This document shows, piece by piece, positions 4,556 through 63,931 of a DNA stretch of 64,000 nucleotides. The DNA lies in IMG/VR virus record IMGVR_UViG_2974663217_000001, positions 5,062 to 69,061 of that record; one strand, 5' to 3'. The DNA comes from a virus (taxonomy: Duplodnaviria > Caudoviricetes). Numbering within the stretch: the stretch's first letter is position 1; each line of letters begins with the position of its first letter. A model generated the notes under the pieces. The model did not search any database. It saw only the letters and a program-made list of their open reading frames with translations, and was not told where the DNA came from. A program made the translations under genes and the position numbers.

Positions 4556-5452
4556 ATGACAACTGTCACTTACCCGCCGCAGGGCCCCACCGTCAACGGT
4601 CACCAGATCACTGTTGACTGGGCACTGAAGAACCCTACGTTCATTTCCAAGGCCGTAAGCCTCGCCGTTCAGGGCAAGTTCATTTCTGACTACATTTTCC
4701 GCGCTGGCGACGCCGCCGCGGGTGCTGTGGTCTACGAACGCACGCTTGGCCCGAACGAGAAGTACCCGGCCAAGGGCGACGTGGAAATCGTGGAGCCCGG
4801 GGACGAATTCCCGCTGGTGGACGTTGGCGAGGTTTCCAAGGAAACCGCTATCGTTGACAAGTTCGGTGCTGCTGCGCTGGTCACCTACGAACAGGTGCGC
4901 CGCAACCAGAAGGACAAGATCACTGAGGCAATCGTCAAGATTTCCAACGCGATCCTCCGCAAGACTGACAACCGCGCCATGGCCGCCCTCGCTGCGGACC
5001 CGGACAAGCTCACCGTGGCCGCTGCTGCCCCGTGGGGCACTGGCACACCGGACCCGTTCAGCGACATTGTGGGCGCTGTCGGTGTGGGCGAGGGCCAGGA
5101 ACTCGACTACAACTTCGATACCGTCCTGATCAACCCCACGGACGCCGCCAAGCTGCTCAAGAATCGCGATATCCGCGATCAGTTGCCGCGCGAGTCCACG
5201 GTGGCCAACCCGCTGCTGTCGGGCCGTCTTGAGGGGCTGGCCGGTCTGAACTGGATTCAGACCAACCGCAAGGCCGCTGGTTCGCTCTACATTCTGCAGC
5301 GCAACATCACGGGTGTTCACGCTGAGGAACTCAGCACCTACACCCGCAACATTGACGAGGCAGCCAACGAGCGCTGGCGCGTCCAGGGTGCCCGTGTTTC
5401 GGTGCCCATCATCACCGACCCCAAGTCCCTTATCGAACTGACGGGAATTTAG
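4556..5452 (+). CDS. Major capsid protein (HK97 fold)
   Basis: Position, 298 aa, and motifs VEPGDEFP, KFG-ALVTYE, DTVLINP. Confidence 0.85.
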   Translation: MTTVTYPPQGPTVNGHQITVDWALKNPTFISKAVSLAVQGKFISDYIFRAGDAAAGAVVYERTLGPNEKYPAKGDVEIVEPGDEFPLVDVGEVSKETAIVDKFGAAALVTYEQVRRNQKDKITEAIVKISNAILRKTDNRAMAALAADPDKLTVAAAAPWGTGTPDPFSDIVGAVGVGEGQELDYNFDTVLINPTDAAKLLKNRDIRDQLPRESTVANPLLSGRLEGLAGLNWIQTNRKAAGSLYILQRNITGVHAEELSTYTRNIDEAANERWRVQGARVSVPIITDPKSLIELTGI

Positions 5453-15073: not shown

Positions 15074-16420
15074 GTGGCTAGCAAACTGCTTGACGGTAAC
15101 AAGCTAAAGAACATATCCGTGACCGGCAAGGGCTTGGACGCGGACCTTGTGGAGGCTTGCCTCAAGGCGTCCTTTTCCACCAGCACCAGCCAAGTGACTG
15201 AGTTCTCTTTGACGTTCCTGGACACCATGGACTTGCAAACGTTCCGTTCGGGGATCCTCAGTTCGGGGGCCACGGTGAAGTATGGCGGCTGGCAAATGGT
15301 CAGCCGCGTGGTCACGGTGGCATCTGGCCCCGCCGGCCCGGAACTGACGGTCAAGGCGCCGTCAGCGTTCGTGGAGGGCTTCAAGTCCGAAATTGGCGGC
15401 AACTCGTGGGGTGATCAGGACGTTGCGGCGTGGGTGACAGCCCAAGCGAGGCGCCGGGACATGAACGCTGTTGTTCAGCCGGGGTTGGGCCGGAAAACCA
15501 TTATCCGGGCGGCCACTGACGGCGATAACAAGGAAAGCACTTGGGACGTTATGGCGGCCCTCGCCACGGCAACGGGGTGCTGGCTGTATGAGTACGGCAC
15601 GACGCTGGTTTTCGCGCGCCCGTCGTGGCTCATGAAAACGGACTGGGGCGGTAGGCATTGGGAACTGTGGTGGAACAACTGGGCCGACTACCACGAGGCC
15701 ATGCAAGGCATGCCCGGGTATTCGGTGGACCCGGGCGCTAACCCGGCGGAACAGTTGACCATTCGACTGCTGTCCCCCGACGCTGACGAGGCGCGGCCCG
15801 GGGACAAGGTGACCTTGACCGGCGCCGGGGTGGGTACCATGTCCGGGGCGTGGATCGTGGTAGGTGTCAGCTATCCCATGACCGTGGCCGGGGCGGTTAC
15901 CCTGTCATGCCAGCGGCCCATTGATCCGGTGATTCCTCCCGTGAACACTGGCACCGGCACCAGCGGTTCGGCGGCCAAGACCTCCACGGTGGTGAGCTCC
16001 GCAACAGGCAAGGCCGGGGCGGGTGCGAACACGTCCGGGGTGGATGGGTGGATGGCTCGCACCAAGGGCCGCTACGTGGACACGGACGGCGCTTATGGTG
16101 CGCAGTGCGTGGACTTGGTGAGCCTCTACAACACGCAATTTATCGGCGGCGGCGCGATCTTTGGCAACGGTAACCAGTGGTACAACAACCCGGCTGCCAA
16201 CGCCAACTATGTGCGCATCCCGGCGGGGCAGCGCGCCCAAAAGGGTGACATTGCTTGCTGGGGTTCGTACTACGGCGGCGGTTACGGGCACGTCTGCATT
16301 GTTGTGGAGGATAGGGGCGGTCAGCTCTACACGTTCACGCAGAACCCTGGCCCCGCCCAATATCAGGTACTCACGAAACAAGGGCTGCAGGGCTACCTCC
16401 GACCACGAAAGTTTGCCTAA
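15074..16420 (+). CDS. Baseplate hub protein with C-terminal CHAP peptidoglycan hydrolase
   Basis: Hub-like N-terminus; C-terminus DGAYGAQCVDL...GDIACW...YGHVCIV...TQNPG with intact Cys/His. Confidence 0.85.
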   Translation: MASKLLDGNKLKNISVTGKGLDADLVEACLKASFSTSTSQVTEFSLTFLDTMDLQTFRSGILSSGATVKYGGWQMVSRVVTVASGPAGPELTVKAPSAFVEGFKSEIGGNSWGDQDVAAWVTAQARRRDMNAVVQPGLGRKTIIRAATDGDNKESTWDVMAALATATGCWLYEYGTTLVFARPSWLMKTDWGGRHWELWWNNWADYHEAMQGMPGYSVDPGANPAEQLTIRLLSPDADEARPGDKVTLTGAGVGTMSGAWIVVGVSYPMTVAGAVTLSCQRPIDPVIPPVNTGTGTSGSAAKTSTVVSSATGKAGAGANTSGVDGWMARTKGRYVDTDGAYGAQCVDLVSLYNTQFIGGGAIFGNGNQWYNNPAANANYVRIPAGQRAQKGDIACWGSYYGGGYGHVCIVVEDRGGQLYTFTQNPGPAQYQVLTKQGLQGYLRPRKFA

Positions 16421-22176: not shown

Positions 22177-22583
22177 TGAAACGAGAAATTGCAACGGGCG
22201 TGGGCGTGATGCTGTTGGCCTCGCTCACGTTCCTAACCACGGAACACGCATCCGTGACCGTGGCGTTGCTGGTGATCCTGGCCAGTTCCTTTGCCGTGCT
22301 GACGGTCTACTACATGCACCGGGCGCGGTGGCGCCAGTACCCCTCCGGGCGGACGTTCCTTTATCTGTTGTGGGCTTTTGACGCGCTGGTTGGGTTCTTG
22401 CTCATTAGCCGGCTGGTGGAACCGCGCGAGCTCCGGCTGACCATTTACAACGTCCTGATAGCTGGCCTTGTGGCGGCTGTCTGGTTGATCACGGCCACTT
22501 TCTGGAAAGCGCAGAAAGAGGCGCGAGCGGAAAGGCTGCGCAAACGGGCAGCACTCAAAGAGAAAGAGGAAAACCAGCCATGA
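22173..22583 (+). CDS. Multi-pass membrane protein (holin-like)
   Basis: About 4 TM helices and a basic C-terminus, directly before the endolysin. Confidence 0.7.
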   Translation: MMKREIATGVGVMLLASLTFLTTEHASVTVALLVILASSFAVLTVYYMHRARWRQYPSGRTFLYLLWAFDALVGFLLISRLVEPRELRLTIYNVLIAGLVAAVWLITATFWKAQKEARAERLRKRAALKEKEENQP

Positions 22584-24235
22584 CCACAGCATCACAGGAA
22601 CGGTTCCTGAACGGCGCCGCCGGTAACTACTATGACCCGGACGGGGTTTATGCGTTCCAGTGCGTTGACACCGCCATTGCCTACGCCATGGCGTGCTACC
22701 CGGACGTGAACTGGGAAACCACGTTTGGCCGCGGAAACGCCAAGGACCACTACCCCAAGTCAAACGCCTACTTCGACAGCATCCCCAACATTGTGGGTGA
22801 CCTCAACAGCTACCCGCAGCGCGGTGACATTGTGATTTGGGGCGGGGACAACTGGAACCCCTACGGGCACATTGCCGTGGTGCTGTGGGCTGACGCCTAC
22901 AGCATGCGGGTGCTGCAACAGAACGCTGACGGTTCCGCTCGCCTCCCAACGCAGATAGCCACCGTGGGCTACGTGATCCCCGGCGCCGGCGGCGTCGTGG
23001 GCTGGCTGCGGCCCAAGGTGTCTGCCGCCGCACCAACACCCACCCCGGCCCCGGCGGCGGGAACGCTCAACGGCATCGACATTTCAATGCACCAAGGGGC
23101 GGCAATCAACATTGCCGGGACAGGTGCGCAGTTCGTGGGCATCAAGGCCACCGAGGGCGTGGGATACACGGATCCGCAGTACGTTGCCAACGTGGCCAAG
23201 GCTCGCCGCGACGGGCTGCCCATCATCCACTATCACTTTGCGCGTCCGTTCGCCGCTGACGGCAACACCGCATTGGCCGAATCGGACTGGTTCCTCTCAC
23301 AGGTGCGCCCCCAGCTTGGCCCGGACGATATCCTCGCGCTGGACTTCGAGGCCGAGAACACCCACCGCACGGACTGGGCCAATGACTTCCTGGACCTCGT
23401 GCATGCCAGCACGGAAAAGCGCCCGTGGCTCTACGCCAATCAGACCGTGGCGAACCAGCCCGGGTGGGATGCCGTCAAGGGCAAGTATCCGCTGTGGTGC
23501 GCCCGGTACCCGCTGCCTGTCATTCAGTCATGGTCCCCACTGAACACGCCCCCGAGCGTTCCAGGCTGGAACCTTGTCATGTGGCAGTACAGCCAGAACG
23601 GCCGGCTGCCCGGTTACGGCGGCGATCTGGACCTGAACGTGTTCTATGGCGACATGGGCGCGTGGCAAAAGCTCGCCGCGGGTGGCAATTGGATTGCCCC
23701 GGTTCAGGTGCCCACCACCACGCCGCCGGTAGCCGGAACCGCGACGCAGTGCATTGTTGACCCGGGCGACACCCTTTCCGCGATTGCGGCACAGTTCGGG
23801 GCGTCCCTGCAGGACTTGATCAACGTCAACCCGGGAATCAGCCCTGACCTGATTTACCCGGGACAGGTGTTGAACCTCCCGGGCGGTGGTCCGCTGCAAC
23901 AGCCGGGTGCCGTGTCTCAGTGCATCGTTGACGCCGGGGACACTCTCGCCGGTATCGCGGCGCAGTTCGGCGTTGACCTCAACGCGCTTATCAGCTTGAA
24001 CGGCATCACGAACCCTGACCTGATCTATCCGGGCCAGTTGCTCAACCTCCCGGCCAAGACGGTGACGGCCCCGGCGCCGACCCCGGCGCGGGTTTCTCAG
24101 GTAGTTGTGGACCCGGGCGACACCTTGGGCGGCATTGCCACCCAGTTTGGCGTCAACGTCCACGACTTGGCCCGAGTCAACGGCATCACGAACCCGGACT
24201 ATATCCAAGCTGGTCAAGTCCTCAACCTCCCGTAA
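22580..24235 (+). CDS. Endolysin: CHAP + GH25 muramidase + 3 LysM
   Basis: FQCVD...YGHIAVV (CHAP); GIDISMHQG...KATEG...YHF...LDFE...WQYS...DLDLN (GH25); three V-GDTL--IA-QFG LysM repeats. Confidence 0.92.
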   Translation: MTTASQERFLNGAAGNYYDPDGVYAFQCVDTAIAYAMACYPDVNWETTFGRGNAKDHYPKSNAYFDSIPNIVGDLNSYPQRGDIVIWGGDNWNPYGHIAVVLWADAYSMRVLQQNADGSARLPTQIATVGYVIPGAGGVVGWLRPKVSAAAPTPTPAPAAGTLNGIDISMHQGAAINIAGTGAQFVGIKATEGVGYTDPQYVANVAKARRDGLPIIHYHFARPFAADGNTALAESDWFLSQVRPQLGPDDILALDFEAENTHRTDWANDFLDLVHASTEKRPWLYANQTVANQPGWDAVKGKYPLWCARYPLPVIQSWSPLNTPPSVPGWNLVMWQYSQNGRLPGYGGDLDLNVFYGDMGAWQKLAAGGNWIAPVQVPTTTPPVAGTATQCIVDPGDTLSAIAAQFGASLQDLINVNPGISPDLIYPGQVLNLPGGGPLQQPGAVSQCIVDAGDTLAGIAAQFGVDLNALISLNGITNPDLIYPGQLLNLPAKTVTAPAPTPARVSQVVVDPGDTLGGIATQFGVNVHDLARVNGITNPDYIQAGQVLNLP

Positions 24236-60520: not shown

Positions 60521-60760
60521 ATGACCACTTACGAGTATCAGACGGTGAAAGTGAACCGAGGCCGCAAGTCCTATGACGCGACCATGAACGCCTACGCTGC
60601 GGACGGCTGGGAAATGGTGAACGTTCGGGACGCGTGGCAAAAGCACGTCACCGTGACCCTACGGCGCGACACCAGCCACCCCGCAGCCTTGCGCCCCAAG
60701 GCCCCCACACTGCTGGGGCTGATATTCGGGGCATTGACCCGCAACCGCACCGCCAAGTAA
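60521..60760 (+). CDS. DUF4177-like small protein
   Basis: YEYQTV...MNAYAADGWEMV...LRR. Confidence 0.75.
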   Translation: MTTYEYQTVKVNRGRKSYDATMNAYAADGWEMVNVRDAWQKHVTVTLRRDTSHPAALRPKAPTLLGLIFGALTRNRTAK

Positions 60761-60771
60761 AGGAAACCCTC

Positions 60772-61890
60772 TTGAAACTCTCTATTGATTCCAGCGCGCT
60801 GAATGAGGCCGTGAGCTTCGCTTACCGGGCCGTGAACCCGCGCCACGCTAGCCCCGTTCTCACCGGGCTGGTCCTGGAAGCTGACGGCGCCGGGTTGCTG
60901 TCCATTCGAGGCTTTGACCAGACCATGGCCAACACGGTGGAAATCGCCGCTGAGGTGGAAACCCCCGGCAAAGTCCTGTTGCCCGGGGCGGTGCTGGTTA
61001 GCATGCTCAAGACGCTGCCGAATAACAAGCCGCTGACGTTGGACGTGGCCGACAGGGCGGAACTCAAGGTCGGGCGCGCCAAGTTCTCCACCCCGGTTAT
61101 GCCCATGTCTGACTACCCGCAGTTGCCCGGGCTGCCGCAGCGCCTTGGGTACGTGGACAGTGACGTGTTCGCCAAGGCTGTGGGGCAGATTCAGCACGCC
61201 GCCGGCAAGAACTCTGACGTGCCGGTTCTGAACGGCATCAACGTGGAGCTCCGAGGGGGAAACCTCGCGTTTCTGGCCACTGACCGTTACCGCATGGCGT
61301 TGGCTGAAATCCCGGTGAACCGTTACCCGGACACCCCGGAAGATGGGGATTTCTTGGTGCTCGCTGACGTGCTGGTGGGCGCGGCCCGGGCGAACAGCGG
61401 CAACCTGGACTTGCTGGGGTCAAGCCAGCGCATTGGGTTCTTGTCAGCGTCCCGGTCCACCACGTCCAACGTGATCGACGGCCAGTTCCCGCCCGTGCGC
61501 CGGTTGTTCCCCGAGGAACACATGATTGCCAACAGGGTGACCGTGGACGTGGACGCGCTGCTTGGTGCTGTCACCCGCGCCGCCGTCGTGGTGGACGGCA
61601 AGAACCCTGTCCGGCTGACGTTCAAGCCGGGTGAGGTGATCGTGGACGCTGGCCGCGCCGATTCCAACGCTGGCGAGGAAGCCGTGGAGTGCTGGCACGA
61701 CTTCGAGGAACCCACCGGGGTGGGATTCAACCCCACGTTTCTGGCTGACGGTTTGCGCGCCCTGACCGCCCCGCAAGCGCTGTTTGGGTTCGCCGCGGAC
61801 ACCAGCATGAAGCCCGTTGCCCTGCAAGACGCTTCCGACCACACCAACAGCCGCCAGTTGCTCATGCCCATGCGGACGGAATCCATATAA
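60772..61890 (+). CDS. dnaN: DNA polymerase III beta sliding clamp
   Basis: TTG 60772 after RBS AAGGA; PVLTGL, DYPQLP, VLNGI, ATDRYRMA, IDGQFP, GFNPTFL--GL, LLMPMR. Confidence 0.92.
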   Translation: MKLSIDSSALNEAVSFAYRAVNPRHASPVLTGLVLEADGAGLLSIRGFDQTMANTVEIAAEVETPGKVLLPGAVLVSMLKTLPNNKPLTLDVADRAELKVGRAKFSTPVMPMSDYPQLPGLPQRLGYVDSDVFAKAVGQIQHAAGKNSDVPVLNGINVELRGGNLAFLATDRYRMALAEIPVNRYPDTPEDGDFLVLADVLVGAARANSGNLDLLGSSQRIGFLSASRSTTSNVIDGQFPPVRRLFPEEHMIANRVTVDVDALLGAVTRAAVVVDGKNPVRLTFKPGEVIVDAGRADSNAGEEAVECWHDFEEPTGVGFNPTFLADGLRALTAPQALFGFAADTSMKPVALQDASDHTNSRQLLMPMRTESI

Positions 61891-61937: not shown

Positions 61938-61972
61938 GAAAAGCCCGGGTCTGAGTCGCCCGGGCTTTTTTC
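61938..61972 (+). terminator. Intrinsic terminator
   Basis: AAAAGCCCGGG ... CCCGGGCTTTTTT. Confidence 0.85.
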
Positions 61973-62046: not shown

Positions 62047-62439
62047 ATGGATTTGCTCAATATCTGGTTCCACGTTTTCCCGTGGCTTACCGTCATAGCG
62101 TGCGTCAACCTGTCATTGATCGTGGTTTGGATGTGGTTTCCGCGGCCCCATGCGATCACCAAGGCTTACCGCGAGGGTTTGGCCGCCGGCTATGCGGACG
62201 GTGTGGAGCATGGCCGGAACGCCGGTTACCGGGACGGCCACAAGCAAGGCGTGGAGGACAACCACCTCGAGGAAGCGCACTTTATCAAGTGCCCCGAGTG
62301 TGACCACGCTATCCATGTCCCCACGATCATGCGCGTTGAGGGCGAACCTGGAAGCGAAACGGTGATTTGCGAGCCGGACACCACGGAACTGTGGGTGCAC
62401 ATGAACGGCCACAAGGCGGGAACTGTTGACCTCGCATAA
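62047..62439 (+). CDS. Membrane-anchored protein with G-x-x-D-G repeats and zinc ribbon
   Basis: N-terminal TM; YREG/YADG/YRDG repeats; CPEC. Confidence 0.7.
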   Translation: MDLLNIWFHVFPWLTVIACVNLSLIVVWMWFPRPHAITKAYREGLAAGYADGVEHGRNAGYRDGHKQGVEDNHLEEAHFIKCPECDHAIHVPTIMRVEGEPGSETVICEPDTTELWVHMNGHKAGTVDLA

Positions 62440-63066: not shown

Positions 63067-63615
63067 ATGGGAATTCTTGACAAGCTCAAGGACTGGTTCA
63101 ACGCTCCACGGATAGACAACCCCGAAAGCGTGAACATGCACGAGGCTGAGGAAGCCATGGAACAGGCGGCCCTGACCGAGGCGCCCACCGAGCGAAACCG
63201 GCGGCTGGCGTATGAACTCACGGTTGCCGCGTTCTTCAAGCTGTGGGACGGCAAGGATGCCCCCAGTGAGGCGTTCGGGCCACAGTCGCCGGCGCTCATT
63301 CAGGAGTTCATGCAGACGTTCAAGCCCGGGTGGCGGTGGGGCGCGTATAACGCCGCTGACTTGGCGGACCACCCGGAAGACCTCGCCCCGTTTTTCTTCC
63401 CGGTCCCTGTCGGCTCTCCGCTGCAAATGGGTGACATTGTGGTGTTCAAAGCGGACTACATGCACCCGTTCGGGAACGTGGGCATTGTGGCCAACCCGGA
63501 CACCAGCTATGGCAGCGTAACGGTGTTCACGCAGCACGTCACCCAGGGCGCGTTGCGAGCTCAAGAGTCGTTGACCATTAGCGCAGTGTTCCGGAGGAAC
63601 CATGTCATTGACTAA
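63067..63615 (+). CDS. CHAP-fold protein lacking both catalytic residues
   Basis: FGPQSPAL / GDIVVF / PFGNVGIV / VTVFTQ align with the phage's two intact CHAP domains. Confidence 0.7.
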   Translation: MGILDKLKDWFNAPRIDNPESVNMHEAEEAMEQAALTEAPTERNRRLAYELTVAAFFKLWDGKDAPSEAFGPQSPALIQEFMQTFKPGWRWGAYNAADLADHPEDLAPFFFPVPVGSPLQMGDIVVFKADYMHPFGNVGIVANPDTSYGSVTVFTQHVTQGALRAQESLTISAVFRRNHVID

Positions 63616-63931
63616 ATTCTCCATGGACATGTACCCGCTGAACCTGGAACAGCAAGCCATATACGTGCGCGAGCGGGTGGTGGAGGAAAACGGGCATCAC
63701 GTATGGCAATTGGGGTTGCATTCCACGCATAACTACCCGCGTTGTGGCGCCCCGGTGAATTACAAGAACGCGACCCGGGCAGCGTATGAAGTGCATCTTG
63801 GCCGGCGGATCCCAAGTTACCTGTTGGTGTTGCCGACGTGCGAGGAACCCCGGTGCGTGAACCCCGAACATATGGTGACTTCCACGCTTCCCCCGGCGGC
63901 GCTGCCCCGTGTGCCGCGAGGCGAGAAATAG
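63602..63931 (+). CDS. Degenerate HNH-like protein
   Basis: RAAYEVHLGRRIP...VLPTCEEPRCVNPEHM; the DH of the active site is replaced by LP. Confidence 0.65.
   Translation: MSLTKFSMDMYPLNLEQQAIYVRERVVEENGHHVWQLGLHSTHNYPRCGAPVNYKNATRAAYEVHLGRRIPSYLLVLPTCEEPRCVNPEHMVTSTLPPAALPRVPRGEK

Follow-up and report, generated by a model that had tools for sequence, protein, structure and literature searches.

Why would a tailed phage that already carries CHAP domains in its tail hub and its endolysin keep a third protein of this kind, in which both catalytic residues are replaced? The question arises from a gene of 182 codons, opening with ATG, near the end of the 64,000-nucleotide stretch of DNA that we analysed (the window), which starts at base 5062 of a phage genome of 69,061 bp and runs to its last base. 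A preliminary description of this sequence had proposed a retained but inactive hydrolase, and the open reading frame, motifs, coordinates and codons that it listed all proved correct for the proteins concerned (Table 1). The product is acidic (pI 4.85), contains no cysteine, and is identical to the protein that Arthrobacter phage DrYang carries as 'Protease'; its relatives belong to the Klausavirus (cluster AR) myophages PrincessTrina, Lymara, KBurrousTX, Colucci and ArV1. We refer to it as the Ser-type CHAP, after the residue at its former nucleophile position.

In RefSeq (NC_042053, NC_049471, NC_026606 and others) the hub CHAP protein is named 'endolysin' and the Ser-type CHAP 'amidase', while the original GenBank entries have 'minor tail protein' and 'protease', respectively; neither 'amidase' nor 'protease' is supported for the Ser-type CHAP. 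Its residues 1-180 match positions 1-180 of the 183-position profile of PHROG 8478, whose name ('amidase', lysis category) mirrors the fold rather than an assayed activity. The endolysin PHROGs are matched weakly, and no match was obtained with Pfam, NCBIfam or PADLOC models, Pfam being silent even at an E-value of 10. The gathering score of Pfam PF05257 is thus not reached, and homology becomes visible through the family profile and the PHROG lysin families. The actual lysis enzyme of the phage is the three-domain-type endolysin listed in Table 1, whose PrincessTrina orthologue, gp31, is the sole cluster AR lysin in Table 2 of PMC5513430. A literature search found no mention of the Ser-type CHAP gene.

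Table 1. Features of the window considered in this work, in window positions
Feature	Position	Strand	Basis
Tail/baseplate-hub protein, 448 aa, active-type C-terminal CHAP	15074..16420	+	Pfam CHAP at residues 338-424, E 3e-11
Endolysin, 551 aa, CHAP + GH25 + 3 LysM	22580..24235	+	Pfam
Sliding-clamp gene	60634-61890		
Terminator-like hairpin with T-run, just 3' of the sliding-clamp gene	61947..61967	+	Consensus scan only
Conserved 130-aa protein	62047-62439	+	PHROG 8530
Ser-type CHAP gene, 182 aa, stop codon counted in	63067..63615	+	ORF list; PHROG 8478, E 3.7e-76; 100% identity to DrYang 'Protease'
N-terminal amphipathic helix, residues 3-11	63073..63099	+	Helical in both models
Acidic helix, residues 24-37, invariant A27, A30, M31, A34	63136..63177	+	Alignment; pLDDT 74-79 with deeper alignment
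CHAP-fold domain, residues 45-182	63199..63612	+	pLDDT about 90-97; VIA-align vs 6IST, 4OLK, 4CT3, Z 13.8-14.1
Ser74 (TCG), catalytic Cys position, N-terminus of helix 73-85	63286..63288	+	
Asn137 (AAC), catalytic His position, start of strand 137-143	63475..63477	+	
HNH endonuclease gene, 14-nt overlap with the 3' end of the Ser-type CHAP gene	63602..63931	+	PHROG 1872, E 7e-25

Predicted structures allow residues 45-182 to be assigned with confidence to the CHAP fold. Two AlphaFold models, built from alignments of eight and 28 sequences (mean pLDDT 80.6 and 86.2, respectively), agree with each other, and the best 12 Foldseek matches were CHAP lysins, all with prob 1.00. In VIA-align the model gave Z-scores of 14.1 to LysIME-EF1 (6IST) and 13.8 to LysGH15 (4OLK) and LysK (CHAPK, 4CT3/4CSH), with about 130 residues aligned; these lysins, PlyGRCS and the phage's own hub CHAP together span 13.6-14.1, and the Z-score to the NlpC/P60 protein RipD (4JXB) is 9.3. 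At the sequence level, a profile of eight family members matches 6IST with an E-value of 1.6e-4 and aligns Ser with the catalytic Cys and Asn with the His. The order of the motifs (Gln, GD strand, Gly, TQ strand) is shared with the lysins and the hub, sequence homology to them is detectable, and the resemblance to CHAP lysins is far above chance, so the CHAP fold claimed in the preliminary description stands. Structural neighbours in BFVD are also CHAP proteins, as are all of those in the ESM Atlas. What distinguishes the protein from the lysins is the Ser/Asn pair in place of Cys/His, the lack of any cysteine or wall-binding domain, and a genomic context that is neither tail nor lysis. The best neighbour outside Arthrobacter is BFVD A0A076G4X3, an uncharacterised Kayvirus-type protein of 169 residues from Staphylococcus phage MCE-2014 (TM 0.55-0.59, 20% identity), which is distinct from the 295-residue weld protein considered below.

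In both AlphaFold models Ser74 and Asn137 stand where a papain-like fold has its Cys and His, which bears out the replacements first read from a comparison with the hub and lysin motifs (YGAQCVDL and YAFQCVDT versus FGPQSPAL). Both residues lie within the two best-conserved blocks and are invariant in all eight Klausavirus-type sequences, down to 46% identity, and the Ser74 codon is two changes away from any Cys codon. When 1.84 billion representatives were searched exhaustively with HMMER, only 27 matches came back; among the alignable ones 25 have Ser at the Cys position (two have Ala), and the His position is Asn in Klausavirus and four metagenomic relatives, Thr in most of the others and otherwise Ile. 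Conservation of the two substitutions, suggested earlier as a check, is thus partial: Ser is kept nearly family-wide, whereas Asn is not universal and two members have Ala for Ser. The canonical outliers P0027, P0033 and P0034, like the phage's own hub and lysin, retain both Cys and His.

These substitutions would leave room for activity if Ser74 itself acted as nucleophile together with an unconventional base, in which case the 'protease' and 'amidase' labels would be correct. Ser is the commonest able substitute for a Cys nucleophile, Ser74 is preceded by an invariant oxyanion-type Gln, His179 is invariant within Klausavirus, and a cellular domain (in P0017) combines Ser with the canonical His. 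The invariant columns across 28 Ser-type sequences are, however, G71, Q73, A96, D123, G136 and R176, and a search of the same sequences for a replacement catalytic set showed that no His, Lys, Asp or Glu had newly become invariant to make up for a His position that holds Asn, Thr or Ile, so that a catalytic centre could not be rebuilt. His179, tried as an alternative catalytic residue, is missing elsewhere in the family, and Ala replaces Ser in two independent members, one of which shares a 90% identity cluster with a Ser form. A cryptic hydrolase based on Ser74 is unlikely, an active one that would justify the present labels very unlikely indeed, and we consider the Ser-type CHAP to be, in all probability, non-catalytic.

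Two further arrangements were seen. Several Thr-type members (P0013, P0016, P0015, P0023 and the EastWest copy, L009 41742-41822) carry an extra CHAP 'GD...GH' hairpin with an intact His, corresponding to Pfam CHAP positions 34-66, in a hypervariable C-terminal extension; the hairpin is not branch-wide, and we rejected it as a His donor in trans because few members have it and the extension is hypervariable. P0017, a cellular S-layer-homology protein of 1330 residues from a metagenome, has four CHAP-type repeats, one of which (residues ~483-600) pairs a Ser-type motif with a retained His and is possibly an intermediate or a Ser-His variant of CHAP.

The gene is maintained. Pairwise dN/dS values lie between 0.2 and 0.5, and in the unsaturated pairs they are 0.21-0.22, with binomial p values against neutrality of 7e-7 and 3e-8. 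The Ser codon varies synonymously among lineages (TCG, TCC, TCA), the reading frame is intact in every one of the 24 Klausavirus records, as it is in some 50 records from more distant phages, and Ser and the motifs are kept down to about 22% identity. Purifying selection, intact frames and deep conservation thus rule out neutral decay. A relic without function, left by a duplicated lysin domain and on its way to being lost, would explain why the gene is absent from some related phages and diverges quickly, but it is hardly credible in view of the same intact frames, the significant purifying selection and the motif conservation. With Ser conserved in homologues under purifying selection (dN/dS about 0.2, p<1e-6), which had been suggested as a check, the initial proposal of a retained dead hydrolase rather than a decaying one is upheld by the fold, the selection, the deeply conserved substitutions, the tolerance of Ser-to-Ala change and the absence of cysteine. 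Retention goes together with divergence: identity to the ArV1 orthologue is 47%, compared with 91% for TerL and 58% for the HNH protein, which marks the gene as fast-evolving at the sequence level.

As to its origin, hub CHAPs score 1e-16 to 1e-22 against the Ser-type profile, lysin CHAPs no better than 1e-9 to 1e-11, and P0015, a Thr-type member, shares 30% identity with the hub CHAP of the window (E 7e-10). This ranking and this identity point to the hub CHAP as the likely parent of the inactive copy. A tree of Ser-type and Cys/His CHAPs was built after masking of the two trait columns, and in it 26 Ser-type proteins group together, with deep internal branches and apart from all Cys/His CHAPs; we regard the support of 86/86 for this single clade as moderate, and the tree gives it no resolved sister group. 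One group with deep internal branches fits a single old inactivation followed by long retention. In our view, a single ancient duplication of the tail-hub CHAP would have been followed by replacement of Cys by Ser and of His by Asn here, by Thr or Ile elsewhere; purifying selection has since kept the inactive copy in Arthrobacter myophages, where it is an accessory gene. EastWest also has three CHAPs, namely the hub gp22, a true endolysin, gp29, with membrane proteins encoded on either side, and the Ser-type gp68, which is labelled 'endolysin' and is surrounded by small non-structural genes.

Within the phage database the Ser-type family is confined to Arthrobacter myophages. The carriers are 24 Klausavirus records, AO-type phages of roughly 50 kb, including each of the six AO myophages in PMC5513430, and phages of A. 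globiformis (EastWest, Jinkies, Wyborn and Sicarius2 among others). Elsewhere the family is rare: a scan of IMG/VR for the conserved motif gave only six loci, and the same motif was not found in the genomes of 185,579 species. A profile search that recovered all three CHAPs in the carriers, used as positive control, found no third CHAP-like gene in Altadena, Bumble, Prairie, Vibaki and Hirko, whose hubs are 46-50% identical. These five phages indicate that the gene is accessory and dispensable in some backgrounds, and that its product is no obligatory partner or regulator of the hub CHAP.

The gene lies about 47 kb downstream of the hub gene and, in agreement with the preliminary description, far from the lysis genes, the lysin being about 40 kb away. 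The local order is sliding clamp, terminator-like hairpin, three small conserved genes, Ser-type CHAP, HNH and genome end, the window and the genome both ending 69 nt past the HNH gene. A promoter scan of 58-64 kb of the window found nothing, and the hairpin is a possible 5' boundary of a transcription unit that would run through the Ser-type CHAP and HNH genes into the packaging genes. Circular permutation has been reported for the PrincessTrina genome, and on a circular map two genes for proteins of about 218 residues follow the HNH gene, then the large terminase and the portal. The placement of the gene 'among non-structural genes' was accordingly half right, as it sits at a junction between replication and packaging genes. 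The HNH overlap is arranged likewise in PrincessTrina, ArV1, KBurrousTX, Colucci and the distant metagenomic relatives L007 and L017, and in the latter two the order of clamp, Ser-type CHAP, overlapping HNH and terminase is also kept; it is not kept in EastWest or L008. HNH adjacency as a functional link was rejected on this distribution, being present in Klausavirus, L007 and L017 and absent in EastWest and L008.

Two neighbouring genes deserve mention in their own right. The PHROG 8530 protein combines a transmembrane segment at its N-terminus with a repeat rich in Gly, Tyr and Asp and a Cys/His cluster at its C-terminus, and its gene is syntenic 5' of the Ser-type CHAP gene in Klausavirus and L017. 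Circularly next after the HNH gene, at genome positions 1-660 and thus outside the window, a 219-residue protein with an N-terminal CxxC...CxxC zinc-ribbon-like motif is encoded (84% identity to its ArV1 orthologue), followed by a probable small terminase and the large terminase.

The CHAP domain is preceded by an extension (residues 1-44) made of an amphipathic helix, a flexible linker and an acidic helix. The hydrophobic moment of residues 3-11 is 0.52-0.83 among Klausavirus members, within the top 1-7% of windows of each protein, and the motif of the acidic helix is shared by distant Asn-type members. In the orthologue of phage Linus (L006 1501-2094) the linker has a seven-residue unit in tandem triplication, which indicates that it tolerates length change. 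Many Thr-type members have a short basic amphipathic tail at the C-terminus instead. These terminal amphipathic helices recall, as we see it, membrane-targeting helices of the MinD/FtsA type, and they may place the inactive CHAP at the membrane. A hydropathy scan of the window protein found no signal peptide or transmembrane segment, confirming an earlier reading: the first 30 residues have a mean hydropathy of -0.77, and the top 19-residue window (1.3) lies within a beta strand. Without a hydrophobic N-terminus or transmembrane segment, the protein lacks the hallmark of cell-wall export that RipD has.

What, then, could a CHAP without catalysis do inside the infected cell? The positions that the whole family keeps are the Gln that precedes the nucleophile position, the GD and TQ strands, the Gly in front of the His position and a C-terminal Arg, and these residues are predicted to line the former active-site cleft. 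We infer that the protein binds rather than cuts, and conservation of the former cleft lining makes a stem-peptide-like ligand or a protein partner the most likely target; the ligand would be of the type that the parental cleft recognised, a peptidoglycan stem-peptide-like moiety from a wall precursor or a fragment, and it or the partner protein would be met within the infected cell. The same motifs are also core fold motifs, and their conservation may instead reflect stability. As a whole, the data are best explained by a free-standing, non-exported and inactive paralogue of the hub CHAP, selected as a binding-only accessory gene, an explanation that we hold to be reasonably probable.

Inactive NlpC/P60 or CHAP domains have precedents in RipD (PMC12067865), the clip of the weld protein and DUF1175 (PMC10318531). 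RipD (Rv1566c) of Mycobacterium tuberculosis is a non-catalytic, peptidoglycan-binding NlpC/P60 protein (PDB 4JXB; PMC12067865), and it resembles the Ser-type CHAP in its papain-like NlpC/P60-superfamily fold, the replaced catalytic residues, the retention of the protein and the actinobacterial setting. It is, however, a secreted cellular wall protein of the NlpC/P60 branch, whereas the Ser-type CHAP is a phage protein of the CHAP branch with no export signal and with a putative peptidoglycan binding. Compared with these precedents, the setting of the Ser-type CHAP is new: it is free-standing and non-exported, its gene belongs to neither the virion nor the lysis module, and it is confined to Arthrobacter myophages. 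A lysin-fold protein that is made in the cytoplasm and acts by binding is familiar from T7 lysozyme (gp3.5), which is encoded away from the lysis genes and binds T7 RNA polymerase; the Ser-type CHAP resembles it in being a lysin-fold protein of predicted cytoplasmic location with a gene remote from the lysis genes, and its partner is putative, but T7 lysozyme has a different fold (amidase_2) and is still catalytically active.

The main rival reading draws on the weld protein of Staphylococcus myophage 812, in which an N-terminal lid is joined to a CHAP-fold clip without Cys-His-Glu, and which covers the active site of the hub CHAP on the baseplate until it is shed upon host binding (PMC13433997). 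By analogy, the Ser-type CHAP may partner the hub CHAP in the virion or during assembly, and through this precedent the regulator or partner idea, put forward earlier as a dominant-negative regulator, seems the most concrete of the three functions then suggested, none of which gained support from our analyses. Both proteins are triad-less phage CHAPs with an N-terminal extra part, from myophages with an active-CHAP hub, and both have been mislabelled as proteases (the phage K weld orthologue as 'putative cysteine protease'). All carriers in the phage database are moreover myophages with a CHAP hub, the Ser-type family is nearest to the hub-type CHAP, and on the circular map its gene lies just upstream of packaging and structural genes, past the terminator-like hairpin. 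Yet the weld gene is found between the hub and central-spike genes and its product in the baseplate, whereas the Ser-type gene is remote from the baseplate cluster, beside HNH and terminase, and in EastWest deep among small non-structural genes. It is missing in the five myophages with a 46-50% identical hub, and no specific sequence kinship to the weld protein was detected: hhalign of our family profile (A2) against the Kayvirus weld (PhageK_110) gave a probability of 3% with only the GD strand aligned, a result in which divergence could mask kinship. A weak point against it is that ORF097 stays hypothetical in the ArV1 record, where many orphan ORFs bear the label 'putative structural protein'. 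On balance, we give a weld-like partnership a small chance of being right.

The other two suggestions, a decoy for a system that senses phage CHAPs and a sponge for wall fragments, are alike in assigning the protein to counter-defence or evasion of sensing, which we rate as improbable. Host-interaction genes are typically accessory, patchily distributed and fast-evolving, as this gene is, and the protein mimics a virion or lysis protein while lacking its activity; on the other hand, no PADLOC defence-related model was matched, no anti-defence-like genes were recognised next to the gene, and we know of no cytoplasmic muropeptide sensor in Arthrobacter, which also counts against it. More specific, and in our estimate a long shot, is the idea of an intracellular, membrane-associated protein that binds either the machinery of wall synthesis or precursors of peptidoglycan (lipid II or UDP-MurNAc-peptide). 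Here the terminal amphipathic helices (N-terminal in Klausavirus, the C-terminal basic tail in the Thr-type branch) would serve as membrane anchor, and the phage would tune or stop host wall synthesis, or time lysis, by means of a silent copy of its tail enzyme. If true, such binding would amount to a protein-antibiotic-like mechanism that is new among tailed phages.

Returning to the binding-only paralogue that we favour, the family has immediate consequences for annotation. About 75 phage records need correction of the labels 'protease', 'amidase', 'endolysin', 'hydrolase' or 'peptidase' on a protein that is almost certainly unable to hydrolyse, and those who mine phage genomes for lysins should leave this family out. 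For the biology of the phages, the Ser-type CHAP family is a clean natural pseudoenzyme that arose once from a traceable parent, the hub CHAP, and is distributed patchily as an accessory gene, and the carrier phages are easily grown and engineered in a harmless soil host, which makes the role of a dead copy of a wall-cutting enzyme directly testable.
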